Position numbers and translations under genes: made by a program. From positions 1,323 through 65,322 of the forward strand of contig CAYNHM010000023.1 in assembly GCA_964397135.1 (NCBI GenBank): 64,000 nt of DNA, read 5' to 3'. Shown here piece after piece: positions 6,447-59,005 of this stretch. Source of the DNA: an uncultured Rikenellaceae bacterium (lineage in GTDB: Bacteria > Bacteroidota > Bacteroidia > Bacteroidales > Tenuifilaceae). The notes beneath the pieces were generated by a model. It saw only the letters and a program-made list of their open reading frames with translations, had not been told where the DNA came from and ran no database searches. How positions within the stretch are numbered: the first letter of the stretch is position 1; each line of letters starts with the position of its first letter.

Positions 6447-6461
6447 GTTGAAAGTATAATA

Positions 6462-9489: not shown

Positions 9490-9496
9490 AGTTTGG

Positions 9497-11523: not shown

Positions 11524-12057
11524 ATGAACTTTTTTACAAAAACAAGAGTGTTAATCGGAGTTATTATCTTACTTGTAGCCATAAATGTTGCAGTAATCGG
11601 AACAATTGGTTTCCACTTCTATAATGCTCCTAAGGAGTTACCACCAGTGGCTCCCAACGAACTTCAGCACGCTAAGTTTATTGCCAATGAGCTAAACCTT
11701 ACCCCTGAGCAAAGAGAGGAATTCAAAGTGCTTCGTGATCAATTTATGGGGGAAGTGCAATTGGTAAAGCGTGAAATCAAAAATACCTACAAACTATCAA
11801 TGATTGAACTTTCTAAGGATGCTCCAAACAACCATATACTCGATAGCCTTTCAGATGAAATTGCTGAGTTACATCGCAAACATCACAAAATAACCATTGA
11901 ACACTTCAAAAAAGTTAAACAGGTTGCCGTCACACCTGAACAGCAGGAGCATTTTAAAAGAATGTTTTATAGAATGATGGACAGGGATCGAGTGGATCAA
12001 TACAGAAAAATAAGGCATGGGAGAAGAATAGATCGCACAAAAAAAAATAATCAGTAA
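11524..12057 (+). CDS. Spy/CpxP-family (LTxxQ) periplasmic protein, membrane-anchored
   Basis: N-terminal TM helix and LTPEQREEF / VTPEQQEHF LTxxQ-type repeats. Confidence 0.6.
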   Translation: MNFFTKTRVLIGVIILLVAINVAVIGTIGFHFYNAPKELPPVAPNELQHAKFIANELNLTPEQREEFKVLRDQFMGEVQLVKREIKNTYKLSMIELSKDAPNNHILDSLSDEIAELHRKHHKITIEHFKKVKQVAVTPEQQEHFKRMFYRMMDRDRVDQYRKIRHGRRIDRTKKNNQ

Positions 12058-12089
12058 TTAGAATTAATAACTCTTTAAATTAAATTGAT

Positions 12090-12596
12090 ATGAAAACAAA
12101 ATTGTTAAAACCAGCAATGATTGCCATTGCGATTAGTTCTATCCTAATGACAATAGGACTAAATACTTACGCTCAACGCGGACAGGGAAGACCAGAACAA
12201 CGAAGGCTTAATCAGGATGAAAGGCCATTAATAGGACATTTTATTCCCAACCTTAGCCCGGAACAGCAAACTCAAATTCAAGAACTTCGTACTAAGCATC
12301 TCAAAGAAGTTACACCGCTCCGCAACGAGTTGAATGAAAAAAGAGCCCGCTTACAAACACTTCAGTCGGCCGAAAAACCCGATATGAATGCCATTAACAA
12401 AACCATAGATGAGATGGCCCAAATAAAAGCCAATATTATGAAGAAGGGTTCTGCTCATAGGACTGAAATATCTACAATACTTACAGAAGATCAAAGAGTA
12501 GTATTTAATGCAAATAGAGCTGGCAGGTCAAAAAAAATGGGACATAGAGGTACACACATGCAAGGAAGAATGGGTATTTGTCCATATATGCAATAA
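12090..12596 (+). CDS. Spy/CpxP-family periplasmic chaperone-like protein with a His/Met/Cys-rich tail
   Basis: Signal peptide, LSPEQQTQIQELR and LTEDQRVVF motifs, and C-terminal MGHRGTHMQGRMGICPYMQ. Confidence 0.65.
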   Translation: MKTKLLKPAMIAIAISSILMTIGLNTYAQRGQGRPEQRRLNQDERPLIGHFIPNLSPEQQTQIQELRTKHLKEVTPLRNELNEKRARLQTLQSAEKPDMNAINKTIDEMAQIKANIMKKGSAHRTEISTILTEDQRVVFNANRAGRSKKMGHRGTHMQGRMGICPYMQ

Positions 12597-16559: not shown

Positions 16560-19385
16560 CTAATTATCATCTAGTTCAACCACAACAACAAAAGCATTTT
16601 TAATTCCACTACCAATTAAATTGTCCTTAACCCTTGCTGCCTCTACGGCATCAGTGTATGAACCAACAGAATAGATAAAGCCACCCTGATCGTTGGGTTT
16701 ACGAATAATATCCTTCCCTGGGGCAAGCGCCCTTATGGTTTGAGCTATATCGTCAGGTAGTCGCCCTTTGTAATGTCCAAGCTGAATCATATAGAGACGA
16801 CTATCCTGTTCAATGCTAATTCTTGGTGATTTATCGTTAGATAAATCTTCGGATGATTCTAGCGATTTTGCTCTAGTAAGGGCAATAGGACGTCCATTGT
16901 GCCAAGCAACGACAAACGCATCCTTAAATCCTTTTGATCGAACAACTGGTAATGCTTTTTCTGCATCGTTGAGCAATCGAAAATTTCCTATGTAGTATTT
17001 AGTCACCTTCCCTCCGCTAACTCGCTCCCCGTTGATTGGCATCATTCCTTTAAAGAAATCGACAGCAACAGGGTTGCTGAATGCTGCCACCTGAATCCTA
17101 TAGATGACTCCTGAAGGAAAAGGTTTGTCAACGGGAATAGGATTAGCTGAACTGTAGGGCGATTTTTCAACCACCTGAAATTCTATTTCTTTCTCGGGAT
17201 GAAATAGTATTGCATCAGGCTTTACTTTGTTTTCTTCAACTCGGCTTATTGAAGCATCCTGAAGAACCGACTCTTGATCTTCAGATACAACCTTTTCAGC
17301 AATAGTTTTAGTGAGAGTAACAGGTAATTTGCTCCCAAAGATATTCTGTTCAAGCCGATATATTCTGCTAAGCACCTCCTGTTCAAAGATTTTCATTCCC
17401 CATAGCTTGGCAAAAACAAGTTCTAACCTTAACACCCCCAGCTCATCAAGAAGTAAAGCATCATAAATTGAATGATCCATCTCCTCTTCGGTGGCATTAT
17501 TTCGAATGGCCGTAGCAGCACGAAAGTGCTGGTTTGCTCTATCAATCTCGCTTCTGATATCAATATCGTTGCTTGCCCCTCTTTTTACCATAGCCACAGA
17601 AACACATTCTCTATAAAGTATTTTTTTTCCTACTGCTTGTTCGTTCAATAAATTGTTAAAGCTTCGAATTTTTGTTAACCAATCTGTTTTATGCTTTTGG
17701 TATTGTGGATTTTCGTTATAGGAATCGGGCTCATTGCTCTCGATTAGTTCTATCTTACTCTTTAATTCTAATAATTCCCTTCTCTGTGTTTCAATCTGAG
17801 GGGTTAACCTCTCCCATTGGGCCAATCGATTTAACTCATCGGTTTGAAAAACAGTTGGGGCAAATTGTGCCTGATAAAGGTATTTTGGATTATCTGACGC
17901 AAAGGTTGATGTAGGCTTATCGATGGGCTTACGTTTCCCAGCTATATACTCCTGTTCAATCTGACTTGCTCTAACAAAAAAATTATCGGCACTGTGTTGT
18001 GCCTCAAGAAGAGCATTTTCAACTGTAACAACCTGCCTTTCAAGTGCTCTTCTATCTTCAGCAGTATTTACAAAGTCGAAACGTTCGCGAAGTGCCTCCA
18101 ATTTAGTCCTTAATGAATCGGCTTTCATTTGCTGGGTAAAACCTTGAGCTAAAGCTCTAGAATATTCAGGGTCATTTTCAACGGCATTAAATGATGCTGA
18201 TTTTGGTTGTGTTTTAGTTTTGGGTGAAGTTGTATGAGTTACTTCTTTGCTAGTAATTGTTTTTGGTTCAAGTTTGGCAATACGCCAAATTGACTCTATC
18301 CTACCGAACGGTCGACGTATGGGATTATCATCTATCTCTACTAAAACAATCTCCAGACTATCCACTGCTGTATTCCGATTGGTCACAAAAGTGGCCAGCT
18401 CATACTTTTCATCCGGAACAAATAAAAAATCATCATATGGAGAGCTAAAAGGGAAACCCAAATTCTCGGGAGTGCTCCATTGCCTAGTCGAAGGGTTATA
18501 AACACTCCTATATATATCGTAACCACCCATACTGTAATGACCATTGGATGCGAAGTACAATGAAACTCCATCACTGGCTAAGTATGGGAAATCTTCATCG
18601 AACGATGAGTTTACAACATCACCAAGATTTCGGGGTTTGCTCCAAAATCCATCAGCCTGAAATTCAATCATAAATATATCTTTTCCATAGGATGTTGTGG
18701 AGCCAAAACTTGAGTAGAATATTTTATCTCCTGGCTGGGGATTATTTGGGTAGAAGATAATGGAACTATCGCCCTGCTTGAGGTCGATGGATGTTTTTAA
18801 ATCGTTGGGTTTAAGTATAAATGTACCATTGGTAGATTTGGTGTTGATATACCGAAAAAAATCGTTTTTGTGAACCATTTTCCTATCGATCACAATAGGT
18901 TGATAAATAAAACGGATCATAAAATTTCCATTCTCGCATTGCCCAACGCGACGTTCGATTATTGGGGTTGGTACTTCAGGATCACCTCCGTTAATAATGA
19001 ATCTGCGGTAGTATGAAAGGGCATCGTCAAACAGATAGCTATGGAAAAACGCCTCAGCCAGGTAATAGTATACCAGATTTGTTACCTGACGGGTTGAGGC
19101 AAACTTAAGATGTTCAATTGACTTATCAAGTTCTTTGGTTGCCTTTAAGTAGCAAACTCCAATTTTATAGTGAAAGTTGGGATCCTGAGGAAACTGCTCA
19201 ATTAATTTCTGATATTTAGGCAATGCCTCAATATAGAGCTTCTGTGAAAAAAGTGAATCGGCTGTTACCTCAACTCTACTCTTCTGAGGTGCAATCTCAA
19301 TATTTTGACCAAAAAGATTTTCTCCAGCAAACCAAAGGATTGCCATTATGAGCAAGCTAGAAAACCTAAGACTAAATGCAACCAT
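16560..19385 (-). CDS. Secreted multidomain protein: TPR repeats, PD40 (TolB-like) propeller repeats, coiled coil and two C-terminal SPOR domains
   Basis: Signal peptide; TPR-like YIEALPKYQKLIEQFP; PD40-like FDEDFPYLASDGVSLYFASN...GGYDIYRS; two SPOR-like modules (YRIQVAAFSNP..., YMIQLGHYKG...). Confidence 0.6.
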   Translation of the reverse strand: MVAFSLRFSSLLIMAILWFAGENLFGQNIEIAPQKSRVEVTADSLFSQKLYIEALPKYQKLIEQFPQDPNFHYKIGVCYLKATKELDKSIEHLKFASTRQVTNLVYYYLAEAFFHSYLFDDALSYYRRFIINGGDPEVPTPIIERRVGQCENGNFMIRFIYQPIVIDRKMVHKNDFFRYINTKSTNGTFILKPNDLKTSIDLKQGDSSIIFYPNNPQPGDKIFYSSFGSTTSYGKDIFMIEFQADGFWSKPRNLGDVVNSSFDEDFPYLASDGVSLYFASNGHYSMGGYDIYRSVYNPSTRQWSTPENLGFPFSSPYDDFLFVPDEKYELATFVTNRNTAVDSLEIVLVEIDDNPIRRPFGRIESIWRIAKLEPKTITSKEVTHTTSPKTKTQPKSASFNAVENDPEYSRALAQGFTQQMKADSLRTKLEALRERFDFVNTAEDRRALERQVVTVENALLEAQHSADNFFVRASQIEQEYIAGKRKPIDKPTSTFASDNPKYLYQAQFAPTVFQTDELNRLAQWERLTPQIETQRRELLELKSKIELIESNEPDSYNENPQYQKHKTDWLTKIRSFNNLLNEQAVGKKILYRECVSVAMVKRGASNDIDIRSEIDRANQHFRAATAIRNNATEEEMDHSIYDALLLDELGVLRLELVFAKLWGMKIFEQEVLSRIYRLEQNIFGSKLPVTLTKTIAEKVVSEDQESVLQDASISRVEENKVKPDAILFHPEKEIEFQVVEKSPYSSANPIPVDKPFPSGVIYRIQVAAFSNPVAVDFFKGMMPINGERVSGGKVTKYYIGNFRLLNDAEKALPVVRSKGFKDAFVVAWHNGRPIALTRAKSLESSEDLSNDKSPRISIEQDSRLYMIQLGHYKGRLPDDIAQTIRALAPGKDIIRKPNDQGGFIYSVGSYTDAVEAARVKDNLIGSGIKNAFVVVVELDDN

Positions 19386-19468
19386 TTAAGTTGAAATTTG
19401 CCCTAAAAATACAAATAATAATTGTATTTCGTCTAAAGAGCAACAACTTGGGCAAAATCCTATAAGGC

Positions 19469-19507
19469 AAAAAAAGTCCTCAAAGAAAATATCTATGAGG
19501 ACTTTTT
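19469..19507 (-). terminator. Intrinsic terminator of the minus-strand redox operon
   Basis: Stem AGTCCTCA/TGAGGACT with a 13-nt loop. A 7-nt T-run follows on the minus strand, directly downstream of the gene ending at 19525. Confidence 0.7.
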
Positions 19508-19524
19508 ATAATTAAATACTATTT

Positions 19525-19992
19525 TTAATTATCGCGTAATACAAACTCGTCATACTCCAGCTCAAAGCGCAATTTATGACGCGACTCCTCCTGAGCAAGA
19601 TTTAAAAAAAGTTGCTTCAAATCCTCGCTTTGTGATTTTTCTGATAGTGACATGTAGAGTTTAAATGCTGCTTTTTCACGCTTCATGGCAAGAATAAGTG
19701 CTTGCTCATAGGTCAAATCATTAGTTGCCTCGTTTATAACAATATAATCGGCAATCTTTAAGTCAGCAACACTCTCATTGGGTAAATTTACAATTCCCTC
19801 CTCTTTAATTTTTGTAAGACGAGCTTTATGTCCAATCTCTTCTCTGGCAAATTGTATAAAGGTTTGACGCATGTCTTCGGAATGGGCTATTTTAGCCAAA
19901 CCCTTATAGAAATCAACTGCATGCTGCTCATTTTCAATGGCAAAATCTAAAATATCGTTTATGCTTTTGAATTCTTTCATCGCATTATTCAT
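19525..19992 (-). CDS. Rubrerythrin-like ferritin-fold di-iron protein (no rubredoxin domain)
   Basis: Two E-x2-H motifs (REEIGHKARL, QEESRHKLRF) within a four-helix-bundle-length protein. Start overlaps the upstream stop (ATGA). Confidence 0.7.
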   Translation of the reverse strand: MNNAMKEFKSINDILDFAIENEQHAVDFYKGLAKIAHSEDMRQTFIQFAREEIGHKARLTKIKEEGIVNLPNESVADLKIADYIVINEATNDLTYEQALILAMKREKAAFKLYMSLSEKSQSEDLKQLFLNLAQEESRHKLRFELEYDEFVLRDN

Positions 19993-22900
19993 TTAAATTC
20001 TTCTAGCTCCTTGTCAAATTGTTCCATAATATAGTCACATCCATGACTAAACAACGGGATTTCTCCGGGTTCATTGATTGTAACAAATCGGTGTTTGCTT
20101 TTACTCACATTTTTGGGCAGAAGTGATATGGCCTCGTTTCTAACATCATCAATGTCGTTTAGTCCGTTTAATCCAAACAATTTCAATAGGTCGATTAGCT
20201 GTACGATGCTTGTTTTTTCAACCCTGGGCTTTAGTCCAGCCTCGAATTCCTGAATAAACCTTTGCGAGTTGGTAAACGAGCCTCCTGTTTCGTACCAAAA
20301 CGATGATGGAAGTATGAGGTTTGCCATTTGGGCTGTTTCGGTCATAAAGGCATCCTGAACAACAATAAATTCTGCCTTTGAGAGTACTCCCGAAATCTTT
20401 TTGCTAGTATCCGAACAACCTACCGGGTCCTCTCCAAAGATAAAAATATTCTGGAAATCAGCTTTGTAGAACCTCTCGCTAAAGCATTCCTTTTCGGGAT
20501 TTGGGTTCGTACTAACACCCCATTGTTCTTTCAACTTTTCAGCAAAATCTTTACTTGAAATGCTTTGGATTCCAACCCCAGTACTGGGTCGAACTCCCAT
20601 ATCGAAAATTCCTTGCGAGTTGTTCTTGCTCTTCAGAGCTATAATACCAGTGGCTGTTTTACCAAGTTTACCAGTAATTAATGCCAGATTTCGAATTTCT
20701 ATAGCGGTTTGCTGGTCAATTTCTCTCTCCGAGAAGATCAGAATTGCATTCAACTCCTTGTTAAATCTATCGGCAAATTCCTCTATACACCTACCGGTGC
20801 AATCGCAAGCTTGCTTGCAAAGTTCACTGTAATTTTTGGCCAAAAGATTCGTTTTGTACTCCTCAAATTGCTCGCAGTTATCGTTTATGAATAGATTGTT
20901 CTGTAGGTTATTCGAGAGTATGTAGTGATTTACTGCCTGAACGAAATGGAAGTATGAATTAATATGGTGGAAACCTCTGGCTTTTCTTTTTAAACGAGGA
21001 ATGTTTTGTGTTGAAATTACTTCGAACGGTACCTTGGCCGAGTTAATCATGTATCCCACAACAGGGTTGTACCTGTCTATCTCTGAGCCAAACAGGAAGA
21101 CTTTACTCGATTTTTTTATTTGTTCAAAGGGAACGTTATGTGTTGAAATGTTAGCAAGGTTCGATGCCCCATGAAGATAGTGGAAGCTGTTGACGTTGTT
21201 GGTTTTAACCCCGGCACGAGCAAATTTCTGGATAAGGTACAATTCTTCGTTGGTTAGCCTTGCACCTGCAAAAAAAGCATTTTTACTGAATTCTGTTGTT
21301 TTTATTTTTTCTTCCATTAACTTGTATGCATCCTCGAATGTAATTTCTCGGTACGAACCATTCTCTTTTACCAATGGCTTTGTTATTCTGTCGGTTCTAT
21401 TGAAAATTCTGTATCCAAATTTTCCATACATACACAAGTTGCCATCGGCATTTACCATTCCCTCGGCACCGGTAACCTTCATAATAAAACCACCCCTGTG
21501 ATGAAAGGTAAGTTTACAGCCAACAGAACAGTAGGTACAAATTGTTTCAAACGAATCCATTTTAACAGGACCAGGTTTAAACGGAACGTTTTCGGTGAGT
21601 GCACCGGTTGGGCATGCCGATAGGCAAAGTCCGCAACTTTCGCAAGTTGTATTGTTTAAATCGTTACCCATTGAAGGGGCAACATAGGTTTCGAACCCGC
21701 GATTGATAAGTGTTAAAGCGTTAGCTCCCACAATCTCTTTGCAAATTCGGATACAACGTGAGCATAGAATACACTTGTTGTTATCTATTTCGATGAAAGG
21801 ATGGTTGAAATTCACCTGGTATTCCTTATGCTCTCCAGCAAAACGTTGCTGGTCAGCATTGTAATTATCTGCATGCTCTTTTAGGCTGCAATCGAAGTAG
21901 GCAACGCATCCGCACTCGAGGCAGCGGCTCGTTTCGTGAAGGGCTTGCTCCTCGCTATAGCCCAACTCCACTTCGTGGAAATTATTTCGTTTATTGGTTT
22001 CAAGCACAGGCATCTCCTCGCGAAGCTGTTTTTGGTAGCGACCAAGGTAATCGTCTGATTCCTGCGTTTTAAAATTATCCTTCTTGCTTAAAAACTCCTT
22101 TTTAGGTGGTTTTACCTCTTGTCCGTTAAGGAACAGGTGGCAGCAATGCGAAGCCAGCTTTGCTTGCGCAATGGCCTCGATAATGGTTGCCGGGCCAGTT
22201 ACCCCATCGCCAGCAGCAAACACCGATGGAATATCGGTTTGTAGTGTATCTGGGTTAGCCGCAATATCGCCCCACTTGTTAGGTTTAAGATAGCCACCCT
22301 TGGCGTGTGTATTGATATCATCCAAAAAGTTGATATCGGTTTTCTGGCCAATGGCCGCCAGAATGTAGTCAAACTCAAGGTCCTTTTCCGACCCTTCAAT
22401 GGCAACAGGTCTCCGACGCCCCGAAGCATCGGGCTCACCCAGTTCCATCTCAACCACGGTGAGAGATTTTAACTTACCCAATTCATCCTTATTCACCTTA
22501 ACCGGTGCGGTTAAAAACATATACTTTACACCCTCCAACTTTGACTCGTGAATCTCAATGGGATTGGCGGGCATCTCCTTCTCGGTACGGCGATAAACTA
22601 CGGTAACATCGGTGCTTCCGCAGCGAATTGAGGTACGACAGCAGTCCATTGCCGTATTTCCACCACCTACCACGGCCACTTTTTTGCCCTTGAAGTCGTA
22701 ACGCTGACCTGTAACCTCCATATTTCGAAGAAAATCGATTCCAGAGAAAACGCCCTCAGCATCCTCTCCCACTGCACCCAAAAGCGCTCCGCGCTGTGAG
22801 CCTATGGTTAGTATGGTTGCATCGTAATTGTCGGAAATCTCCTTGTACGAAAGGTTATCTCCTAACTTCTTATTGTAGAAGATATTAACACCCAACTCGG

Positions 22901-23669
22901 TAACAGCATCAACCTCTTGTTGGAGCAAATCGTTGGGGAGTCTGTACTCGGGTATGCCGTAACGCAACCAGCCACCAGCGTAGGGTTGCGCCTCGTAAAT
23001 ATCGCATTGATGACCTTTCTGTTGAAGAAAGTATGCAGCGGAGAGTCCACCGGGACCAGCTCCAATAATTGCCACTTTTTTCCCTGTTGATGGAGCAATT
23101 TCAGGAATATAGTGTGTTTCAGAATCCAGATCAGCATCAGCAGCAAAGCGTTTCATGTAATCGATACCAACACCTGTGCCTTCGTCAAGAAGGTTACGCC
23201 TGCAAGCAACCTCACATGGGCGAACGCACACACGTCCACAAATTGCTGGAAGTGGATTGGTTTGCTTGATAACTTTTACAGCTTCGCTGTATAGTCCCTT
23301 TTCAATTAGTGAAATATAACCCTGTACATCAACACCAGCAGGACAACGTTCACGGCAGGGAGCAACGCAATCAGCGTAGTGGTTGCTCAAAATCAAATCC
23401 AATGCTGTTTTACGAGCCCTGTGAACACGTTCGTTATCAGTATTAATGGTCATACCTTCTGCTACTCTTGTTGAGCAAGATGGTTGAAGGTTTCGTTGCC
23501 CTTCAATCTCAACCACACAAAGGTAACAGGAAGAATAGGGCTCAAGGCGAGGATCATGACAAAGCGTTGGAATCTCAATACCTTGGCGTTTGGCGACTTC
23601 CAGGATGTACTCTCCCTTGTTTGCAGCTGTAGGTTTTCCGTTAAGAATTATATTGATTTTTTCACTCAT
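19989..23669 (-). CDS. Fusion oxidoreductase: [2Fe-2S] ferredoxin + GltD/NfnB-like NAD(P)H-FAD module + NuoG-type Fe-S clusters + degenerate molybdopterin (FdhA/NuoG-like) domain
   Basis: N-terminal C-x..-C-x2-C 2Fe2S; CRERCPAG...CGRVCVRPCE; GAGPGGL and GGGNTAMD dinucleotide folds; HPFIEIDNNKCILCSRCIRIC; CESCGLCLSACP; CTYCSVGC...C Mo-pterin-type 4Fe4S; LIQKFARAGVKTNNV block. Confidence 0.8.
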   Translation of the reverse strand: MSEKINIILNGKPTAANKGEYILEVAKRQGIEIPTLCHDPRLEPYSSCYLCVVEIEGQRNLQPSCSTRVAEGMTINTDNERVHRARKTALDLILSNHYADCVAPCRERCPAGVDVQGYISLIEKGLYSEAVKVIKQTNPLPAICGRVCVRPCEVACRRNLLDEGTGVGIDYMKRFAADADLDSETHYIPEIAPSTGKKVAIIGAGPGGLSAAYFLQQKGHQCDIYEAQPYAGGWLRYGIPEYRLPNDLLQQEVDAVTELGVNIFYNKKLGDNLSYKEISDNYDATILTIGSQRGALLGAVGEDAEGVFSGIDFLRNMEVTGQRYDFKGKKVAVVGGGNTAMDCCRTSIRCGSTDVTVVYRRTEKEMPANPIEIHESKLEGVKYMFLTAPVKVNKDELGKLKSLTVVEMELGEPDASGRRRPVAIEGSEKDLEFDYILAAIGQKTDINFLDDINTHAKGGYLKPNKWGDIAANPDTLQTDIPSVFAAGDGVTGPATIIEAIAQAKLASHCCHLFLNGQEVKPPKKEFLSKKDNFKTQESDDYLGRYQKQLREEMPVLETNKRNNFHEVELGYSEEQALHETSRCLECGCVAYFDCSLKEHADNYNADQQRFAGEHKEYQVNFNHPFIEIDNNKCILCSRCIRICKEIVGANALTLINRGFETYVAPSMGNDLNNTTCESCGLCLSACPTGALTENVPFKPGPVKMDSFETICTYCSVGCKLTFHHRGGFIMKVTGAEGMVNADGNLCMYGKFGYRIFNRTDRITKPLVKENGSYREITFEDAYKLMEEKIKTTEFSKNAFFAGARLTNEELYLIQKFARAGVKTNNVNSFHYLHGASNLANISTHNVPFEQIKKSSKVFLFGSEIDRYNPVVGYMINSAKVPFEVISTQNIPRLKRKARGFHHINSYFHFVQAVNHYILSNNLQNNLFINDNCEQFEEYKTNLLAKNYSELCKQACDCTGRCIEEFADRFNKELNAILIFSEREIDQQTAIEIRNLALITGKLGKTATGIIALKSKNNSQGIFDMGVRPSTGVGIQSISSKDFAEKLKEQWGVSTNPNPEKECFSERFYKADFQNIFIFGEDPVGCSDTSKKISGVLSKAEFIVVQDAFMTETAQMANLILPSSFWYETGGSFTNSQRFIQEFEAGLKPRVEKTSIVQLIDLLKLFGLNGLNDIDDVRNEAISLLPKNVSKSKHRFVTINEPGEIPLFSHGCDYIMEQFDKELEEFK

Positions 23670-23732
23670 TTCTGCTATTTTTTTTTGCTAGAGCGCAAAA
23701 GCAAAGAATTATTTATAAGCTAAAAACAAATT

Positions 23733-25511
23733 TTACGAAATCTTTATGGCATCGAATTTACACCTGCTGTAGCAATCGCCACAACGGATGCAGATTTCTT
23801 GATTAATAAAATGTGGCATTTTCTTCTCTCCGGTAATAGCTTGAACCGGACATTTAATGGCACAAACCCGGCAACCCGTACACTTGGCTGGATCAATCTC
23901 GTATGTAAGCAGTGCCTTGCAGCTCAAAGCAGGACATTTTTTATCGTAAATATGTGCTTCATATTCATGCCTAAAATACTTTATGGTTGTAAGAACAGGG
24001 TTTGGGGCAGTTTGTCCTAATCCACAAAGGGAACTATCCTTAATCTGATGTGCCAATTCCTCAAGCTTTTCGATATCGCCCTCGACTCCTTTACCCAAAG
24101 TTATACGAGTAAGTATTTCTAGCATTCGCTTAGTGCCTATACGGCAGAAAGTGCACTTGCCACACGATTCTTTCTGGGTAAAATCGAGGAAAAATCTTGC
24201 AACATCCACCATGCAAGTGGTTTCGTCCATAACCACCATACCACCTGAACCCATTATGGCACCAGTAGCAGTTACCTTATCATAATCAATTTCAGTATCG
24301 ATAAGATGTTTTGGAATACAGCCACCTGATGGTCCTCCCATCTGAACGGCTTTAAATTCCTTATCGTTTTGAATTCCCCCTCCCAGACTATAAATAATCT
24401 CACGAATAGTCATACCCATGGGTACTTCAACCAAACCACCATGCTTGATTTTACCTGTTATGGCAAAAACCTTTGTTCCTTTGCTTTTTTCAGTACCATA
24501 TTTATTAAACGATTCGGCTCCACGGTAAATAATAAAGGGTATGTTGGCAAAAGTTTCAACGTTGTTTATATTTGAAGGTTTACGCCAAAGACCTGCTTCA
24601 GCAGGGAAAGGTGGACGTTTACGGGGCATTCCTCTTTCACCCTCAATGGATGCGATTAGGGCTGTCTCCTCACCACATACGAATGCGCCAGCTCCCTCTT
24701 TTACGTAAATATCAAGGTTCAAACCCTCAATTCCACAGATATTTATACCTAAGAAACCTGCTTTTCGTGCTTGTTCAAGCGCAATATTTAATCGCTTAAT
24801 AGCCAACGGATACTCAGCCCGACAGTAGATTACACCATGGTTTGCACCAATGGCGTAAGCGCCAATTATCATACCTTCCAACACGGAATGTGGATCTCCC
24901 TCAAGCAGCGAACGATCCATGAATGCACCCGGATCTCCCTCATCAGCATTACAAATAATGTATTTATCATCCGCTTTATTATTTCGGGCAAATCGCCATT
25001 TTAAGCCCGTTGAAAAACCACCACCTCCTCGTCCTCGAATACCAGAATCAAGAACTGTTTGTATTACTTCTTCAGGTGTTATTTTACTTTCAGCAATCTT
25101 TTTCAATGCTTTATAACCATCTCTTGCTTCGTATTCCTGCAAATTTTCAGGATCAATATAACCGCAATTGCGAAGTGCAATCTTTACCTGTCCCTGAAAA
25201 AAATTCTTGTCGGGGGTTTCAAAAAGATCAGTTTTTACCACATATTCTTTTATGGGATTATGCCCAATTATGTGGTTCTGAATTATTTCAACTGCTCTAT
25301 CCTCGGTTACATCACCATAGGTAAATGAACCTATATCGTCAACAACTTCAACAAGGGGTTCACGAAAGCACATGCCCACGCAGCTGGTTTTCTTTAGCTC
25401 AAAATCGAGCGTATCGGATTTTTGGAGCGCAAGTATCTTTTCATACACCTTACCAGCTCCAGCTGCTATACCGCAGCTTCCCAACCCGACTATAACCTTT
25501 GTTTTAGACAT
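23733..25511 (-). CDS. NuoF/HydB-like NADH-binding FMN flavoprotein, with an N-terminal thioredoxin-like 2Fe2S and a C-terminal 2x[4Fe-4S]
   Basis: GRGGGGFSTG FMN/NADH block, ESCGKCTFCR N3-cluster motif, and CTGCRVCAIKCP and CIRCGDCYSRC ferredoxin motifs. Confidence 0.9.
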   Translation of the reverse strand: MSKTKVIVGLGSCGIAAGAGKVYEKILALQKSDTLDFELKKTSCVGMCFREPLVEVVDDIGSFTYGDVTEDRAVEIIQNHIIGHNPIKEYVVKTDLFETPDKNFFQGQVKIALRNCGYIDPENLQEYEARDGYKALKKIAESKITPEEVIQTVLDSGIRGRGGGGFSTGLKWRFARNNKADDKYIICNADEGDPGAFMDRSLLEGDPHSVLEGMIIGAYAIGANHGVIYCRAEYPLAIKRLNIALEQARKAGFLGINICGIEGLNLDIYVKEGAGAFVCGEETALIASIEGERGMPRKRPPFPAEAGLWRKPSNINNVETFANIPFIIYRGAESFNKYGTEKSKGTKVFAITGKIKHGGLVEVPMGMTIREIIYSLGGGIQNDKEFKAVQMGGPSGGCIPKHLIDTEIDYDKVTATGAIMGSGGMVVMDETTCMVDVARFFLDFTQKESCGKCTFCRIGTKRMLEILTRITLGKGVEGDIEKLEELAHQIKDSSLCGLGQTAPNPVLTTIKYFRHEYEAHIYDKKCPALSCKALLTYEIDPAKCTGCRVCAIKCPVQAITGEKKMPHFINQEICIRCGDCYSRCKFDAIKIS

Positions 25512-25613
25512 CTATTTATTATTTATATGGAATACAGATTTAGGTAATCCTTATGTTTTTGCTTTGCTGAAGGTAAGAAAATACTTCATGTTTATGATTC
25601 GAACCCCTCCACA

Positions 25614-26144
25614 TTAGGATTCAGTTTCTTTTATTTTAATATCCTTGATTACTTTCACTGCACTTGCTTTTGTAAGTTTTCCATGAGTTTCTTCTCCAAT
25701 CATCATAACTGGGGCGAGCGAACAGCATCCAAGACAAGCAACTGACTCGAGTGTAAATAGTTTATCGGGTGTGGTCTCCCCGTCCTTAACTCCAAGGGCT
25801 TCCTGAATAGCATCAGTTATGGAGTCGGCATTTTGAACGTGACATGCAGTGCCATGGCAAACCTTAATGATATGCTTGCCCGCAGGTACTAACCTAAATT
25901 GAGCATAGAAAGTTGCCACACCATACAAATCGCTAAGGCTAAGCCCTGTCTCATCCGAAATTTTTTTGAAAACATCAACAGGTATATAGCCATATATATT
26001 CTGAGCTCCCTGTAATAAAGGAATCAGACTTCCTTTCTTACCTTTAAACTTATCAATTAAAGGTAAAAGCAGATTTAGGTCGATATTATCAACGATCTGA
26101 TTATTATCATGCTTTGGTTTAATTCTTTGAATACGCATTGACAA
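25614..26144 (-). CDS. NuoE/HydC-like thioredoxin-fold [2Fe-2S] subunit
   Basis: CHGTAC ... CLGCCSLAP cluster motif. Size and position fit a location upstream of the NuoF-like gene. Confidence 0.9.
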   Translation of the reverse strand: MSMRIQRIKPKHDNNQIVDNIDLNLLLPLIDKFKGKKGSLIPLLQGAQNIYGYIPVDVFKKISDETGLSLSDLYGVATFYAQFRLVPAGKHIIKVCHGTACHVQNADSITDAIQEALGVKDGETTPDKLFTLESVACLGCCSLAPVMMIGEETHGKLTKASAVKVIKDIKIKETES

Positions 26145-26293
26145 CTTCTTTTATATACTTTACGACGTTTTAAAAGTAAGGATTTGATTTTTATTATTGA
26201 ACAAGGAATAAAAATTTTAACTCCCGACCTAAAGAATCATAAAAGTTATGTAATCTATATTCCTTGTTCATAAATTGTTTGTTAGTGAAGAAA

Positions 26294-27754
<1,461 letters not shown>

Positions 27755-27923
27755 TCAGGCATTTACTGATTTTTCATATCAGGGTTTTACTTAAATTGTA
27801 TCCGTAAAACACGTAATTGCCAATTAACCCATCCTGATTAAAAAAAAACAATGTATATTGGGAAGTTAAGAGGGCAACTGAAAGCCAGTATAAAAGGGGA
27901 TATATTAACGAAACAATGTCATT

Positions 27924-30900
27924 ATGGGCAGCAGTTCATCGTCACAAGAGGACTTCTACAAGCTTCTTGCTGAAAGCAAGGAAAGGTTAAAAGAACTTTC
28001 TGCAATTAACCGAACAACTTCAATTATAAAAGAAGGTCGAACTGTTGAAGGCACACTTCGTCAAATATGTTTAATTCTTCCAGATGCATGGCAATTTCCT
28101 CAATTCACAGTTGCTCGTATTAAGTATCAAAAGATGGAGTTTACCTCTGTAGGTTTTGAAGAAACTCCCTGGGTTCAAATTCAAGAATTTTCTACTATCG
28201 ATGGTGAGAAGGGAAGTGTTGAAATATTCTATACTCGTGAATTTCCTGAAGAATATGAAGGACCTTTCCTGAAAGAGGAACGAGATTTAATTCAAAACTT
28301 AACTAATCTAATAGTTGGTTACCTTAACTCCATAAAAGGAAAAGACTTTGTAAAAGAGGTTAAAATTCCCAAAAAACCAGTTGAATCAGAAGGAGTTCAC
28401 ACCAGAAAAAGACTTTTACAGAAATTCATCAATCAGCATAATTCTGACCGTGATATCTATCACGATTTAATGCCATTTAAAGTAAAGGAAATATTACTTA
28501 TAGCAAATCTATACGATGCATACAATCTAGAAAAAGAGGATAGAGTAACCGATAACATACTTGGCGAATACTCAAAATTAAGTTTAACCAGTGTACCAAG
28601 AATAACGGGTGTATCAACGCTAGAGGAAGCGCTGGAAAAAATGGAGGAGAAGCATTTCAACATGGTTATCATCATGATGGGTGCTGATAGGGTCACGCCG
28701 TTGGAGGTGGCAAAACGGATTAAAGGCGAATATAACTACATCGCTTTATATCTTCTGGTTAATAACTCAGCCGTTCTTAACGAGATGGAGAAGAATCCTT
28801 TGACCTTAGAAAGCATTGATAAAGTGTTTGAATGGAATGGAGATCCAAAAATATTCTTCTCAATAATTAAACTTCTTGAGGATAAGGTAAACCTCGAAAA
28901 TGATACAAGAATAGGCCTTACAAGAATTATACTTCTAGTTGAGGATTCACCAAGGTACTATTCAAGATACCTACCTGTTCTCTACAGCAGCATCCTTGAA
29001 CAGACCAAGCGTATTATTGAGGACGTGAGCACCGATGATCTCTACAAAGTGCTTAGAATTAGAATTCGACCCAAGGTTTTACTAACCGGAAATTACGAGG
29101 AGGCCATTGAAATTTTCAAGCGATATAAGGATTTTATGCTCTGCGTAATTTCAGATGTTAAGTTTTTTCACAAAGGGAAACTTGACGAAAATGCTGGAAT
29201 TAACCTTATCACAGAAATCCGTAAAACACTGCCCAACTTACCAGTAATCATGCAATCGTATGAGCAAAGTAACGAATTCAAAGTTAAGCTGCTGAACGAA
29301 AAGTTTGCGGGCATACGCAACGAACCAATTTTTGAAGATTTAATCAATATCGCCTTTATCAATAAGAACTCTGACAGCTTAATGCAAGAACTTAAAAATT
29401 TTATTAGCAACTACTTAGGATTTGGCGATTTTGTATTCAAGGATGCAATCGGTCAACCCATTGCAACAGCTACCAGCATGGAAGAATTTGAAAAGATTCT
29501 TAGGGATATTCCTGGAGAAAGTATTCTTTACCATGCCGAGAAGAATCACTTCTCTCTTTGGCTTTCTGCCAGAGGGGAAATTAACGTTGCTCGTATCATT
29601 CACCCCTCTAGCATAAACGACTTCTCGGGTCCGGAAGAAATTAGAACTTACCTCCTTACTACTTTAAAGAAATACCGCCAAGAGCAACGCAAAGGTAAGA
29701 TTGTAAGCTTTGAAACGGCATGGGAAGTGGATTCAAGCAATATAGTTTCTTTAGCGGAAGGCTCAGTGGGAGGTAAAGGGCGGGGTATCTCTTTTATAAA
29801 CACTTTGCTTTATACTTTCGAGATTTCACAGTATGTTCCTAATATCAATCTCTACAGTCCAAGAACATCAATAATAGGTATCAACGAGTACGAATGCTTT
29901 ATGCAGCGTAATGGGTTGTACGAAAAGGTTTTTTCTGAAACTGACTACAATCGGATTATGCAGTATTTCCTTGAAGGAGAGCTATCCGATCAACTCATTA
30001 CCAGATTAGAAAGGCTCCTGCAAATATATTATCGTCCGTTAGCTATCCGTTCTTCTGGGTTACTGGAAGACTCACTCATGCAACCTTTTGCAGGCATATT
30101 CGAAACTTACCTGATACCAAATAACCACCCCGATCCCAAGGTACGCCTTAAACAAACAATGGATGCAATTAAGTTGGTTTATGCCTCCGTTTTTTCAGAT
30201 ACTGCTCGAGGGTACATAAAAGCTGTTAACTTCAAAATTGAAGACGAAAAGATGGCTGTGATAATTCAGGAAGTCGTGGGAAATAAATATGGTGATTACT
30301 ACTATCCGCATATTAGCGGTGTGGCTCAATCATACAACTATTATCCTTATGGTCATATTAAACCTGAGGATGGCTTTGCCACAGTTGCTCTAGGTTTGGG
30401 TAAATATGTAGTGGAAGGAGAAAAAGCGTTCCGATTCTGCCCCAAATATCCTACGTTAATGAACTATACCCCGGCAGATCTTGTTAAAAACTCACAAACC
30501 GAATTCTTTGCCATTGATCTTAAAAGACATGATATTAATCTGTTGACTGACGGTGATGTTGCTGGGTTGTCAAGGTTAAACCTCTTCGAAGCTGAAGAGC
30601 ATGGCACCATAAAGCACTGCGCTTCGGTTTACAATCCCGAAAACAATACCATTACACCTGGATTATCGCAGCCCGGATCAAGAGTTCTTAACTTTGCCAA
30701 CATTTTAAAATATAATTATATACCCCTTGCACAAACAATTCAGGTTGTTCTTGAAGTGGTTGAGGAAGCCCTTGGCTCACCCTGTGAAATTGAATTTGCT
30801 GTCGATTTAAATCGTGATATCAACTATAAGGCATCCTTTTTCTTACTGCAGATAAAACCCATGGTTGGCAATACAGAAGAGTATAAAATATTCCCTGAAA

Positions 30901-31424
30901 GCATAGATCATTCTAAAGTTATCTTAATTTCGTATAATGGCATGGGTAACGGACAGATTGAAAACATTTCTGATATTGTATACATCCGCAGAGAGAACTT
31001 TGACAAAGGGTTAACCCCTGATATGGCTCATGAAGTTGATCTGATTAACAGACAAATGATTGAAAAAGGTAGAAAATATGTGCTTATTGGCCCAGGCAGA
31101 TGGGGAACTCGCGATCGATGGATAGGAATTCCTGTTACGTGGCCACAGATATCCAATGCTAAACTTATTGTTGAAACCAGCTTCGAAGATTTTCCGCTTG
31201 ATGCCTCATCGGGATCACATTTCTTTCATAATGTTATTAGCATGAATGTTGGCTATTGTTCAATACAGGATGGTGATTTGAATTGTAGGATTGCTTGGGA
31301 CTCTCTCGATGAAATTCCTGCAGAAACAGAAACAAAATTTTTCCGACAAGTTCACTTCAAAGAACCTTTATCGGTTAAAATGGATGGAAAGAAAAGAATT
31401 GTGCTGGTAAGCACTGAAAAATAG
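27924..31424 (+). CDS. Signalling enzyme P1: N-terminal sensor-like module + degenerate receiver + receiver + PEP-synthase-type ATP-grasp (PPDK_N-like) + putative phosphohistidine swivel-like C-terminus. No PEP/pyruvate TIM-barrel domain.
   Basis: LLVEDSPRYYS...VISD (receiver); GSVGGKGRG; LAIRSSGLLEDSLMQPFAG; MAVIIQEVVG; EIEFAVDL...LLQIKP; LIGPGRWG...LIVET...SGSHFFHN. Confidence 0.7.
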   Translation: MGSSSSSQEDFYKLLAESKERLKELSAINRTTSIIKEGRTVEGTLRQICLILPDAWQFPQFTVARIKYQKMEFTSVGFEETPWVQIQEFSTIDGEKGSVEIFYTREFPEEYEGPFLKEERDLIQNLTNLIVGYLNSIKGKDFVKEVKIPKKPVESEGVHTRKRLLQKFINQHNSDRDIYHDLMPFKVKEILLIANLYDAYNLEKEDRVTDNILGEYSKLSLTSVPRITGVSTLEEALEKMEEKHFNMVIIMMGADRVTPLEVAKRIKGEYNYIALYLLVNNSAVLNEMEKNPLTLESIDKVFEWNGDPKIFFSIIKLLEDKVNLENDTRIGLTRIILLVEDSPRYYSRYLPVLYSSILEQTKRIIEDVSTDDLYKVLRIRIRPKVLLTGNYEEAIEIFKRYKDFMLCVISDVKFFHKGKLDENAGINLITEIRKTLPNLPVIMQSYEQSNEFKVKLLNEKFAGIRNEPIFEDLINIAFINKNSDSLMQELKNFISNYLGFGDFVFKDAIGQPIATATSMEEFEKILRDIPGESILYHAEKNHFSLWLSARGEINVARIIHPSSINDFSGPEEIRTYLLTTLKKYRQEQRKGKIVSFETAWEVDSSNIVSLAEGSVGGKGRGISFINTLLYTFEISQYVPNINLYSPRTSIIGINEYECFMQRNGLYEKVFSETDYNRIMQYFLEGELSDQLITRLERLLQIYYRPLAIRSSGLLEDSLMQPFAGIFETYLIPNNHPDPKVRLKQTMDAIKLVYASVFSDTARGYIKAVNFKIEDEKMAVIIQEVVGNKYGDYYYPHISGVAQSYNYYPYGHIKPEDGFATVALGLGKYVVEGEKAFRFCPKYPTLMNYTPADLVKNSQTEFFAIDLKRHDINLLTDGDVAGLSRLNLFEAEEHGTIKHCASVYNPENNTITPGLSQPGSRVLNFANILKYNYIPLAQTIQVVLEVVEEALGSPCEIEFAVDLNRDINYKASFFLLQIKPMVGNTEEYKIFPESIDHSKVILISYNGMGNGQIENISDIVYIRRENFDKGLTPDMAHEVDLINRQMIEKGRKYVLIGPGRWGTRDRWIGIPVTWPQISNAKLIVETSFEDFPLDASSGSHFFHNVISMNVGYCSIQDGDLNCRIAWDSLDEIPAETETKFFRQVHFKEPLSVKMDGKKRIVLVSTEK

Positions 31425-58984: not shown

Positions 58985-59005
58985 AAGTCAAAACATTTCA
59001 TCACC

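Follow-up and report, generated by a model that had tools for sequence, protein, structure and literature searches.

Gene content and transcription unit

What enzyme is encoded by the four minus-strand genes that follow a glutamate dehydrogenase gene in this Bacteroidales genome, and does the last of them, coding for a small di-iron protein, belong to that enzyme? The features of the locus are listed below in the order of transcription; the window is the whole 64,000-nucleotide stretch of DNA that was analysed.

26294..27649, minus strand: gdhA, NADP-specific glutamate dehydrogenase (NF006929, 774 bits; cut-off 536)
26198..26270, minus strand: long hairpin in the gdhA-nuoE spacer (13-bp perfect outer stem; centroid -25.4 kcal/mol, spacer z -3.9)
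26171-26178, minus strand: near-consensus Bacteroidetes -7 box TACTTTTA, downstream of the spacer hairpin
25614..26138, minus strand: bfuC/stnA-like gene (NuoE-like, ~174 aa; PF01257, E 2e-49)
23733..25511, minus strand: bfuB/stnB-like gene (NuoF-like, 592 aa; from Pfam domains and PDB matches)
19989..23669, minus strand: bfuA/stnC-like gene (1226 aa; N-terminal [2Fe-2S], GltD/NfnL-like FAD-NADPH module, predicted inactive NuoG/FdhF-like domain)
19525..19980, minus strand: fourth gene (151 aa; 155 aa from an overlapping ATG at 19992; Rubrerythrin PF02915, E 4e-14)
19469..19507, minus strand: intrinsic terminator closing the four-gene unit (dG -18.7 kcal/mol, z -6.5, T-run on the 3' side)

A sequence-only reading had proposed a minus-strand four-gene operon. 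All four ORFs were found on that strand where it had placed them, in the order NuoE-like, NuoF-like, 1226-aa fusion and 155-aa di-iron ORF, and the domain layout that it described was borne out by Pfam and NCBIfam searches. The start codon of the NuoE-like gene is more likely the ATG at 26138 than the TTG at 26144 chosen by the ORF lister. The terminator that had been noticed downstream stands as well: a 12-bp stem is followed by a T-run, and none of 200 shuffled sequences folded equally well. It was missed by a pattern scanner because its outer loop is 13 nt long. Judging by the hairpin that trails gdhA, the short intergenic gaps and the terminator behind the fourth gene, the four genes are predicted to form one transcription unit.

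The first three genes specify a probable transhydrogenase of the Nfn-Bfu family

For the products of the first three genes, the best matches among solved structures were the same, namely StnABC of Sporomusa ovata (Sporomusa-type Nfn; PDB 8OH5/8OH9), NfnABC of Caldicellulosiruptor saccharolyticus (9BOV/9BP5) and NfnABC of Thermococcus sibiricus (9N5U/9N5V). For all three subunits, these Nfn-type structures outranked every hydrogenase-type and every non-bifurcating relative; the family placement is a ranking by match score and not a bootstrapped tree. From its sequence, the operon is predicted to encode an Stn/NfnABC (Nfn-Bfu) NADH/ferredoxin:NADP+ transhydrogenase, the Bacteroidales (Tenuifilaceae-like) orthologue, which agrees with the earlier assignment to the Stn/Nfn type of the HydABC/Bfu family. 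Our preferred explanation of the whole locus, to which we give a probability of about 0.8, is that such an orthologue is accompanied by a di-iron accessory protein that scavenges H2O2 or O2, with gdhA as a clade-specific neighbour. The enzyme would be an ordinary member of a family whose structure is already solved, with biochemistry and structures published (PMC7483475, PMC10482914, PMC11829005, PMC12018979), and some Bacteroidetes BfuB sequences are already in the Nfn clade (Schut et al., PMC9304861).

The NuoE-like protein is a thioredoxin-like [2Fe-2S] subunit with the 'C1' gating cluster. Its best PDB matches were 9bov_C, 8oh5_A and 9n5u_C; it is 53% identical to StnA and keeps the CxxxxC...CxxxC ligands. 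The NuoF-like protein, in which Pfam recognized Complex1_51K, SLBB and NADH_4Fe-4S domains and two C-terminal Fer4 motifs (residues 537-588), is the subunit with the FMN/NAD(H) site, the B1 [4Fe-4S] cluster and the C-terminal 2x[4Fe-4S] ferredoxin-docking domain. Both C. saccharolyticus and T. sibiricus NfnABC share with it and the NuoE-like subunit the BfuBC core that defines the FMN/B1/C1 flavobicluster (PMC11829005, PMC12018979). Of the two extra domains that had been ascribed to the NuoF-like protein, the C-terminal one was found, but the N-terminal "2Fe2S" domain, a weak thioredoxin-like match at residues 31-79, has three Cys only (C13, C44, C48). StnB and Csac NfnB are alike in this respect; the Stn model has [2Fe-2S] at the three-Cys site, the Csac Nfn model Zn (PMC11829005). 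Every Cys common to these two proteins is retained in the NuoF-like subunit, which is 67% identical to StnB and 64% identical to Csac NfnB. The solved B chains of the Nfn type scored 896 (8oh5_B), 864 (9n5u_B) and 864 (9bov_B) bits, compared with 771-607 bits for NiFe/FeFe HydB and ~400 bits or below for non-bifurcating Fdh/Nuo/complex I.

One could suppose that the three large subunits make up an NADPH-linked oxidoreductase that does not bifurcate, such as a sulfur, oxygen or viologen reductase or a plain diaphorase, given that the homologous Nso of T. litoralis was first described as an NADPH-dependent sulfur/oxygen oxidoreductase (cited in PMC7483475) and that recombinant StnC alone oxidizes NADPH (PMC7483475). 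Sequence cannot separate bifurcating from non-bifurcating relatives with the same cofactors, and non-bifurcating S. wolfei HydBC is depicted among the comparison proteins of Kremp et al. (PMC7483475). However, the same authors regard Nso itself as probably an Stn (PMC7483475), all tested homologues (from S. ovata, C. saccharolyticus and T. sibiricus) bifurcate (PMC7483475, PMC11829005, PMC9304861), and the full BfuBC core is kept at 64-67% identity, its ferredoxin-docking 2x[4Fe-4S] domain included. We consider a non-bifurcating enzyme very improbable.

The 1226-aa protein aligned end to end with 9bov_A (Csac NfnA, 1178 aa; E 4e-240) and 8oh5_C (S. ovata StnC, 1172 aa; E 3e-237). The best overall match was 9bov_A (803 bits, residues 7-1187 aligned), and C. 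saccharolyticus NfnABC provided the best match for both the large and the NuoE-like subunits. The identity to StnC, 44.7% over residues 3-891, falls inside the 31-51% range at which Stn clusters were called by Kremp et al. (PMC7483475). Pfam domains follow one another as Fer2_4 (3-79), Fer4_20 (101-182), Pyr_redox_2 (197-503), Fer4_Nqo3 (624-692), Molybdop_Fe4S4 (707-757) and Molybdopterin (761-1154). Ligands are retained for every cluster, one [2Fe-2S] and six [4Fe-4S]: C37/48/51/65, H97 with C101/105/109, C148/152/156 with K173 (K170 of Stn), C583/586/588/594, C633/636/639/643, C676/679/682/686 and C711/714/718/746. The Arg near FAD is kept (R243, R239 of Stn), as are the GxGxxG (FAD) and GxGxxA (NADPH) motifs. 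Val115 takes the place of StnC Cys114, a residue whose mutation cuts activity by half; the archaeal enzyme also has Val there.

It had been suggested that this fusion joins separate Stn subunits in an unusual insertion topology. This proved not to be so: StnC is already a single 1172-aa polypeptide with a [2Fe-2S] domain (1-101), a GltD module (102-565) and an inactive FdhF-like domain (683-1172) (PMC10482914), and Csac NfnA has the identical set of three domains (PMC11829005). The 2Fe2S-GltD-NuoG/FdhF topology is the defining architecture of the Stn/NfnABC family. Nor is the fusion a sequencing or assembly join of two genes, as it is found full-length in at least 80 species.

The window operon shares with StnABC the gene order (nuoE-like, nuoF-like, fused gltD/nuoG-like), the three-domain large subunit, the cluster ligands including Lys, the FAD-near Arg and the FdhF-like domain, inactive in Stn and predicted to be so here. 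It differs in coming from a Bacteroidales fermenter, not an acetogen, in not adjoining Wood-Ljungdahl pathway genes, in a large subunit that is ~50 residues longer and has the Cys114 to Val replacement, and in the added di-iron protein gene and upstream gdhA. The large subunit of T. sibiricus is shorter (963 aa) and has one cluster fewer than the window protein, which belongs to the long bacterial type. A fourth gene has been reported for neither C. saccharolyticus nor T. sibiricus NfnABC.

The Molybdopterin and Molybdop_Fe4S4 matches, and public annotation of homologues as 'formate dehydrogenase major subunit' or 'molybdopterin-dependent oxidoreductase', would fit a formate dehydrogenase or other molybdopterin enzyme. 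Against this, Leu832 occupies the position of the Sec/Cys ligand (FdhF Sec140), the chain ends near FdhF residue 482, before domain IV, and a Pfam/NCBIfam profile search found no Molydop_binding domain (PF01568). For S. ovata Stn, no activity with formate was seen, and the FdhF-like domain there is inactive (PMC7483475, PMC10482914). We give a molybdopterin enzyme practically no credence; the FdhF-like domain is, by its sequence, a catalytically dead scaffold.

If it works like the solved complexes, to which it is homologous, the Nfn-Bfu enzyme would bifurcate or confurcate electrons and reversibly couple 2 NADPH + NAD+ + oxidised ferredoxin <-> 2 NADP+ + NADH + reduced ferredoxin. NADP(H) would react with the FAD in the GltD-like part of the 1226-aa subunit, and single electrons would travel along its cluster chain, where the first [4Fe-4S] is expected to be held by three Cys and Lys173, to the FMN/[4Fe-4S]/[2Fe-2S] 'flavobicluster' of the NuoF-like and NuoE-like subunits. 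Bifurcation would take place there, with FMN binding NAD(H) and the 2x[4Fe-4S] domain at the C-terminus of the NuoF-like subunit serving as the docking site for ferredoxin. The analysis directly shows the gene structure, the order of domains, the conserved ligands, the placement in the family, the synteny counts and the genomic contexts; catalytic activity, bifurcation, flux direction and what the fourth protein does are presumptive. Since the enzyme is reversible, its sequence does not tell which way the flux runs. The same overall reaction is carried out by classical NfnAB (NfnSL) of Clostridium thermocellum, an unrelated enzyme of two subunits that bifurcates at FAD itself.

The fourth gene encodes a di-iron protein that regularly accompanies the operon

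The fourth product is a four-helix bundle with a di-iron site, of the COG1633/'erythrin' type. It is no true rubrerythrin, from which it differs in having neither a C-terminal rubredoxin domain nor any Cys. In its family alignment, E22, E52, H55, E106, E136, H139 and Met5 are invariant. The AF2 model (pLDDT 87.8) is a four-helix bundle, and the nearest folds are the COG1633 proteins TM1526 (1VJX), 2OH3 and PF1190 (2FZF), which have the same E / ExxH / E / ExxH di-iron site; no function is assigned to these nearest solved structures. The length of homologues is 151 aa in 19 of 26 aligned sequences and in most family members, and the real start is likely Met5 (ATG 19978-19980). Since Met5 is invariant, the junction with bfuA is likely an 8-nt spacer. 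The ATGA overlap noticed earlier is present in the sequence, but the translational coupling read from it is not conserved, given the Met5 start and gaps of 0 to 264 nt between the two genes across related loci.

The rubrerythrin-like partner had been described as non-standard. The characterised enzymes do lack it, but it is no oddity of the window: it is a conserved neighbour in Bacteroidota and Ignavibacteria, and in 48 of 65 related loci the next ORF downstream of bfuA codes for it. In 44 loci it lies on the same strand at most 400 bp downstream of bfuA, and in four more at 543-3891 bp. The four-gene operon also occurs in one Ignavibacteria MAG and two other genomes. The gene is missing beside the operon in the remaining 17 loci, two whole clades among them, and a parsimony count points to about six losses. 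It looks like an ancestral yet dispensable accessory, not a core subunit, and its regular presence beside the transhydrogenase operon in Bacteroidota is the sole unreported feature here.

Distant homologues (49-58% identity) have rubredoxin, desulfoferrodoxin, rubrerythrin, flavodiiron, AhpC and Fur neighbours in four of eight sampled contexts. Their location in rubredoxin/superoxide-reductase/rubrerythrin clusters of other phyla suggests peroxide or oxygen defence. Most likely, the fourth protein, a rubredoxin-less di-iron protein that would be co-transcribed with the operon, scavenges H2O2 or O2 and thereby protects or relieves the Fe-S-rich, oxygen-sensitive enzyme. The protein might also be an iron-handling mini-ferritin or ferroxidase, buffering iron for a complex that needs ~40 Fe per protomer: the fold is ferritin-like, Ferritin_2, encapsulated-ferritin and MbfA-erythrin models matched weakly, Dps-like and bacterioferritin structures were among the Foldseek matches, and an EncFtn-encapsulin pair lies 2.3 kb downstream in one locus (L086). 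Since the closest structures are COG1633 proteins and not cage-forming ferritins, and the immediate neighbours in other phyla are an oxidative-stress set (rubredoxin, superoxide reductase, rubrerythrin, flavodiiron protein), we find such a role decidedly doubtful.

A protein with neither rubredoxin domain nor Cys needs an external one-electron donor, which raises the possibility of a four-component enzyme, in which the di-iron protein docks on Nfn-Bfu and takes electrons directly from an Fe-S cluster of the complex, e.g., the off-pathway cluster pair in the Fdh-like domain. The corresponding clusters C1 and C2 of StnC have been described as an unused branch (PMC10482914). Such a complex would also be an NAD(P)H/ferredoxin-driven peroxide or oxygen reductase, and would correspond, with BfuA added, to the predicted 'Rub-Bfu' (Schut et al. 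2022, BfuB clade 57; PMC9304861). That BfuBC-plus-rubrerythrin enzyme, itself a prediction only, likewise has a rubrerythrin-family gene at the operon 3' end, which hints at a link between the bifurcating core and peroxide detoxification. However, it is without BfuA and has the rubrerythrin gene immediately behind bfuB, whereas in the window an Nfn-type BfuA gene comes first and the di-iron protein has no rubredoxin domain. The fourth gene is tightly linked, conserved, probably ancestral and under a terminator common to the operon, and its product weakly matches (E 6e-4) NCBIfam PRK12775, an NfnA-like/GltD/ferritin-domain fusion family. A rubredoxin gene adjoins homologues in other phyla (8 nt upstream in L089, and in L084); none was found among annotated window ORFs of at least 140 aa, a survey for which rubredoxin genes are too short. 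Direct docking is nevertheless unlikely in our view: the fourth gene is not beside the operon in the 17 loci mentioned above, no fusion to a Bfu or GltD protein occurs among the best 150 family representatives, and purified Stn and Nfn are three-subunit complexes (PMC7483475, PMC11829005).

gdhA is a neighbour in the closest clade

The NADP-type gdhA was placed directly upstream of the operon by the sequence-only reading, and the NF006929 match confirmed it; its start is most likely Met34 (27649), giving 451 aa. The gdhA product and the transhydrogenase would share an NADP(H) pool. A role of the operon in NADPH supply is plausible, but the link is weaker than claimed: synteny is confined to the closest clade (same-strand gdhA upstream in 16 of 18 loci there, compared with 1 of 39 distant ones), and between gdhA and the operon stands a terminator-like hairpin. 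In C. thermocellum, the locus tags of nfnAB (Clo1313_1848-1849) are consecutive with that of an NADPH-dependent GDH gene (Clo1313_1847), a precedent for gdh-transhydrogenase synteny, and nfnAB deletion had little effect on ammonium-linked physiology (PMC9888227). Each of the 18 related loci with an upstream gdhA has a structural equivalent of the spacer hairpin behind that gene, often with a T-run. The hairpin is probably the gdhA transcript end or an attenuator and gdhA probably a separate transcription unit; the -7 box downstream of the hairpin marks a candidate promoter.

Gene Organization of the Operon

The four open reading frames (ORFs) of the operon are present, and the domain content previously read from them was almost exactly reproduced by Pfam and NCBIfam. 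All four are co-directional on the minus strand. The operon and its neighboring features are, in the direction of transcription:

Directly upstream of the operon, minus strand: NADP-type glutamate dehydrogenase gene gdhA (NCBIfam)
26198-26270, minus strand: long hairpin in the 149-nt gdhA-nuoE spacer, with a 13-bp perfect outer stem and without a T-run
25614-26144, minus strand: NuoE-like ORF (bfuC), 176 aa, thioredoxin-like [2Fe-2S] NuoE homologue
23733-25511, minus strand: NuoF-like ORF (bfuB), 592 aa (Pfam)
19989-23669, minus strand: bfuA ORF, 1226 aa (Pfam/NCBIfam)
Downstream of bfuA, minus strand: fourth ORF, 155 aa, Rubrerythrin match in Pfam (E 4e-14)
19469-19507, minus strand: terminator, a strong hairpin followed by a T-run (dG -18.7 kcal/mol, z -6.5)

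The terminator, which had been proposed from the sequence and proved real, was missed by a pattern-based terminator scanner because of the loop limit of the latter. The probable start codon of the NuoE-like gene is the ATG at 26138, and that of gdhA lies at 27649. The fourth gene had been read as overlapping bfuA by an ATGA; its conserved start is instead Met5, which yields a protein of 151 aa and an 8-nt spacer. Within the operon, the intergenic spacers are AT-rich and fairly long, with 102 nt separating the nuoE-like from the nuoF-like gene (25512-25613) and 63 nt separating the latter from bfuA (23670-23732). Neither contains a credible Rfam match, and an Rfam scan of 19000-28200 returned two sub-threshold chance matches and nothing more.

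The NuoF-like protein has an FMN/NAD(H) domain, a B1 cluster site and a C-terminal 2x[4Fe-4S] domain; Pfam reports a weak thioredoxin-like match at its N-terminus and two [4Fe-4S] motifs at its C-terminus. In the first half of the 1226-aa chain, Pfam places Fer2_4 (residues 3-79) and Fer4_20 with Pyr_redox_2 (101-503), the last two making up a GltD module. The second half contains Fer4_Nqo3 (624-692), Molybdop_Fe4S4 (707-757) and Molybdopterin (761-1154). No C-terminal pterin-binding domain (PF01568, Molydop_binding) was matched by Pfam in this chain.

The Operon Encodes a Member of the Nfn-Bfu/Stn Family

A search against solved-structure sequences settled the identity of the complex. The alignments of the 1226-aa protein to NfnA of C. 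saccharolyticus (Csac; 9BOV chain A, 1178 aa, E 4e-240) and to StnC of S. ovata (8OH5 chain C, 1172 aa, E 3e-237) run end to end, and T. sibiricus NfnA (9N5U) is the third-best match. The same three complexes rank first for the NuoE-like protein. The NuoF-like protein scores 896 bits against StnB and 864 bits against each of two NfnB chains, compared to 771-607 bits against HydB chains of bifurcating hydrogenases and ~400 bits or fewer against subunits of non-bifurcating formate dehydrogenases and complex I, so that it groups with Nfn-type sequences by bit-score ranking rather than in a tree. A published BfuB tree has Bacteroidetes sequences in its Nfn clade (clade 53; Schut et al., PMC9304861). 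In the printed alignments, the NuoF-like protein is 67% identical to StnB and 64% to Csac NfnB, and the NuoE-like protein 53% to StnA; the large subunit is 44.7% identical to StnC over residues 3-891, and its GltD module alone 52%. The assignment to the Stn/Nfn type made from the sequence alone is thus borne out by the best structure matches of all three subunits.

The same cannot be said of the "unusual insertion topology" ascribed to the large subunit. StnC consists of a [2Fe-2S] domain (residues 1-101), a GltD fold (102-565) and an inactive FdhF-like domain (683-1172) (PMC10482914), while Csac NfnA has N-terminal, NfnL-like and Fdh/NuoG-like domains (PMC11829005). Like both, the protein studied here is a single-chain BfuA in which a [2Fe-2S] domain is followed by a GltD/NfnL-like FAD-NADPH module and then by a NuoG/Fdh-like domain. 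Given this published domain order, the topology is the canonical architecture of the family.

An alignment shows that the 1226-aa chain keeps every cysteine used by or common to StnC. The conserved sets are C37/48/51/65; H97 with C101/105/109; C148/152/156 with Lys173, equivalent to the unusual cluster ligand K170 of Stn; C583/586/588/594; C633/636/639/643; C676/679/682/686; and C711/714/718/746; the HxxxCxxxCxxxCP and CxxCxCx5C motifs are also present. These ligands are sufficient for one [2Fe-2S] and six [4Fe-4S] clusters. The sole differing cysteine is the non-essential C114 of Stn, which is Val115 here; the archaeal enzyme likewise has Val at this position. Arg243 corresponds to R239 of Stn, an arginine near FAD, and the GxGxxA NADPH motif is retained. 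In the B subunit, the cysteines common to StnB and Csac NfnB are all kept, including the three-Cys N-terminal site, which is occupied by [2Fe-2S] in the Stn model but by Zn in that of Csac Nfn (PMC11829005). In its four-Cys [2Fe-2S] motifs, the NuoE-like protein matches StnA and NfnC exactly.

Two other assignments can be set aside. In a classical NfnAB/NfnSL or in glutamate synthase, a stand-alone GltD-like subunit of ~470 aa is accompanied by an NfnS/NfnA or GltB partner, whereas here the GltD module forms an internal part of the 1226-aa chain, which excludes both. No NfnS or GltB gene was found among annotated ORFs at the locus, and the GltD/gltA NCBIfam scores of the chain are all below cut-offs (for example, 655 vs 916 for PRK12814). 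A molybdopterin formate dehydrogenase, the function implied by the public labels of homologues ("formate dehydrogenase major subunit" or "molybdopterin-dependent oxidoreductase"), is ruled out, since Leu832 aligns with selenocysteine 140 of FdhF (FHYLHGAS vs RVUHGPS), the chain stops near FdhF residue 482, short of domain IV, and the Molydop_binding match is missing. No formate activity was observed with S. ovata Stn (PMC7483475). These labels are therefore misnomers for Nfn-Bfu transhydrogenase subunits, and metabolic models of anaerobic Bacteroidales should accordingly hold a link from ferredoxin and NADH to NADPH.

The fused large subunit is present at full length (about 1222-1245 aa, 58-89% identity) in 80 species-level genomes, and the 1226-aa protein is collinear with these homologues over residues 1 to about 1224. 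It follows that the fusion is not an assembly join of two genes. The hosts are nearly all Bacteroidales/Bacteroidota; the nearest sequences come from Tenuifilaceae-like MAGs labelled Rikenellaceae or Tenuifilaceae, with Perlabentimonas gracilis at 80% identity. All 8000 scored database candidates had E <= 1e-50, and the 120 matches listed were nearly all 1222-1261 aa long. In the 80 related loci, the order bfuC-bfuB-bfuA is the same wherever the contig is long enough. A literature search for Nfn in Tenuifilaceae found nothing relevant. We conclude that the locus adds a new, as yet uncharacterised member from Bacteroidales to the Nfn-Bfu/Stn family, whose structure is solved. Its core enzyme adds nothing new to enzymology, as three cryo-EM structures of the same architecture exist.

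Relationship to gdhA

The NADP-type gdhA had been noticed directly upstream of the operon, and NCBIfam confirms it. Where the large subunit shares at least 66% identity with that of the window, 16 of 18 loci have a co-directional gdhA gene upstream of the operon; among more distant loci, one of 39 does. Each of the 18 related loci that have an upstream gdhA shows a strong hairpin, often with a T-run, immediately after this gene; these hairpins occupy the same place as the one in the window and are equally strong, yet non-homologous to it. Many of these loci also contain, nearer to nuoE, an element resembling TAnnTTTG, the consensus of the Bacteroidetes promoter element. In the window, TACTTTTA at 26171-26178 is presumably a near-consensus Bacteroidetes -7 box. 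A σ70 promoter scan, whose models do not cover Bacteroidetes promoters, returned 24 sites vs 21.6 expected. Judged from these hairpins and promoter-like elements, gdhA and the operon most likely form separate transcription units whose synteny is limited to one clade.

A functional link through NADP(H) is reasonable. C. thermocellum offers a precedent for it: there, the locus tags of nfnAB and the NADPH-GDH gene are consecutive (PMC9888227), and the recurrence suggests coupling of the NADP(H) pool to glutamate metabolism. The proposed role of the operon in NADPH supply draws on the adjacency of gdhA. On the other hand, the synteny is confined to one clade, a hairpin separates the genes, and the transhydrogenase reaction is reversible, so that the enzyme could either serve ammonium assimilation by supplying NADPH or remove the NADPH that a GDH generates in amino-acid catabolism.

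The Fourth Gene Encodes a Di-Iron Protein

The fourth gene is the only element of the operon outside the published enzymes and provides a modest lead. Its description as rubrerythrin-like holds for the di-iron Rubrerythrin-family match but not for the remainder of a canonical rubrerythrin: the 155-aa sequence contains no cysteine, and thus no Fe(Cys)4 rubredoxin-like domain, nor does Pfam match one. The di-iron set E22/E52/H55/E106/E136/H139, which follows an E, ExxH, E, ExxH pattern, is invariant in 26 sequences, and the AF2 model is a four-helix bundle (pLDDT 87.8). The nearest proteins by both sequence and fold are the uncharacterised COG1633 proteins TM1526, 2OH3 and PF1190. At E <= 1e-10, the family comprises 747 representative clusters. 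Of 1778 representatives, the best 150 are nearly all stand-alone proteins of ~150 aa, with no large fusions among them, including to GltD or Bfu proteins; PRK12775, a fusion model that the protein matches weakly, is the one trace of such an architecture.

Linkage was analyzed in 65 related loci with enough downstream sequence. The di-iron gene lies on the same strand within 400 bp downstream of bfuA in 44 loci, is present at a greater distance (543-3891 bp) in four and is absent from 17. Unsupervised clustering of flanking ORFs retrieved it as by far the most recurrent neighbor (50 loci, in 48 of which it is the first downstream ORF). Parsimony on a neighbor-joining tree of the large subunit makes presence ancestral, with about six losses that include two larger clades without the gene, a pattern more in keeping with an accessory than with an obligatory subunit. 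We found no paper linking a ferritin-like or erythrin gene to Nfn-Bfu or Stn.

Other genes recur near Nfn-Bfu operons as well (e.g., L065 U2 and L048 D2). A ~293-aa protein of repeated CxxC zinc-ribbon motifs is encoded in 13 related loci, being the first downstream gene in four that lack the ferritin-like gene, and a classical NfnS/PDR-like 274-aa gene occurs in five.

Genomic context was also inspected for eight family members at a greater distance (49-65% identity to the protein of the window). The four-gene Nfn operon recurs in three contexts, one of them in an Ignavibacteria MAG; four are oxidative-stress clusters of the classic anaerobe kind, with rubredoxin, desulfoferrodoxin, rubrerythrin, flavodiiron protein, AhpC and Fur; and in one, the gene is isolated. 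In two of the four stress clusters, a rubredoxin gene is immediately upstream of the di-iron gene. By association, the fourth protein most likely reduces peroxide or oxygen, normally with a small donor such as rubredoxin. It may be co-expressed to protect a complex carrying ~40 Fe per protomer; alternatively, it might draw electrons from the complex itself.

The stress clusters (loci L083, L084, L087 and L089, from a Planctomycetota MAG and three other genomes, with the gene at ~6001-7456) also contain hemerythrin. In L089, the rubredoxin gene ends 8 nt ahead of the di-iron gene, an arrangement that looks like a split rubrerythrin. In locus L086, a four-gene Nfn operon is followed, 2.3 kb further downstream, by an encapsulated-ferritin (EncFtn-like) gene and an encapsulin (Linocin_M18) gene (8748-9905).

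A Bfu enzyme combined with a rubrerythrin has been predicted: "Rub-Bfu" (type 4 Bfu) has no BfuA and has a true rubrerythrin gene directly after bfuB (Schut et al., PMC9304861). The window locus is not a member, since a complete bfuA gene separates its di-iron gene from bfuB; in addition, the di-iron protein here differs from a true rubrerythrin in having no rubredoxin domain. It is conceivable, though we consider it unlikely, that the Bacteroidota/Ignavibacteria Nfn-Bfu is a four-component machine in which the di-iron protein docks, perhaps at the cluster branch in the Fdh-like domain that otherwise goes unused, and reduces H2O2 or O2 with electrons of the complex. Such an arrangement would constitute a built-in safety valve for an electron-bifurcating enzyme and the first relative of the predicted Rub-Bfu class within reach of experiments; transfer of electrons from the complex to the di-iron protein would tie bifurcating enzymes to peroxide detoxification, a connection so far made only by the Rub-Bfu prediction.

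Other Genes in the Window

No ferredoxin, Rnf, hydrogenase or PFOR was found among window ORFs of at least 140 aa, a size below which shorter ferredoxin and rubredoxin genes fall. Divergent from gdhA are genes for two paralogous large PPDK_N (ATP-grasp) proteins, 38% identical to each other:

27924-31424, plus strand: PPDK_N protein
31640-34606, plus strand: PPDK_N protein

The 988-aa PPDK_N protein has a response-regulator receiver domain (Pfam). Homologues are divergent from gdhA in 17 related loci and, in another arrangement, lie directly downstream of the ferritin-like gene in loci L043 (10255-13167) and L085 (7592-10570). The PPDK_N proteins may be a regulatory partner of the operon.

Two further groups of genes are located on the plus strand:

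10424-11014 and 11524-12596, plus strand: ECF-type sigma factor gene, then genes for two paralogous Metal_resist/LTXXQ (Spy/CpxP-like) periplasmic proteins
52248-63142, plus strand: two GH20 hexosaminidases, a GH29 fucosidase with a PA14 domain, a DUF4838 protein and a GH35 beta-galactosidase

The former looks like an envelope or metal-stress module, apart from the operon, and the latter is typical of a Bacteroidales locus for utilisation of host- or mucin-type glycans.
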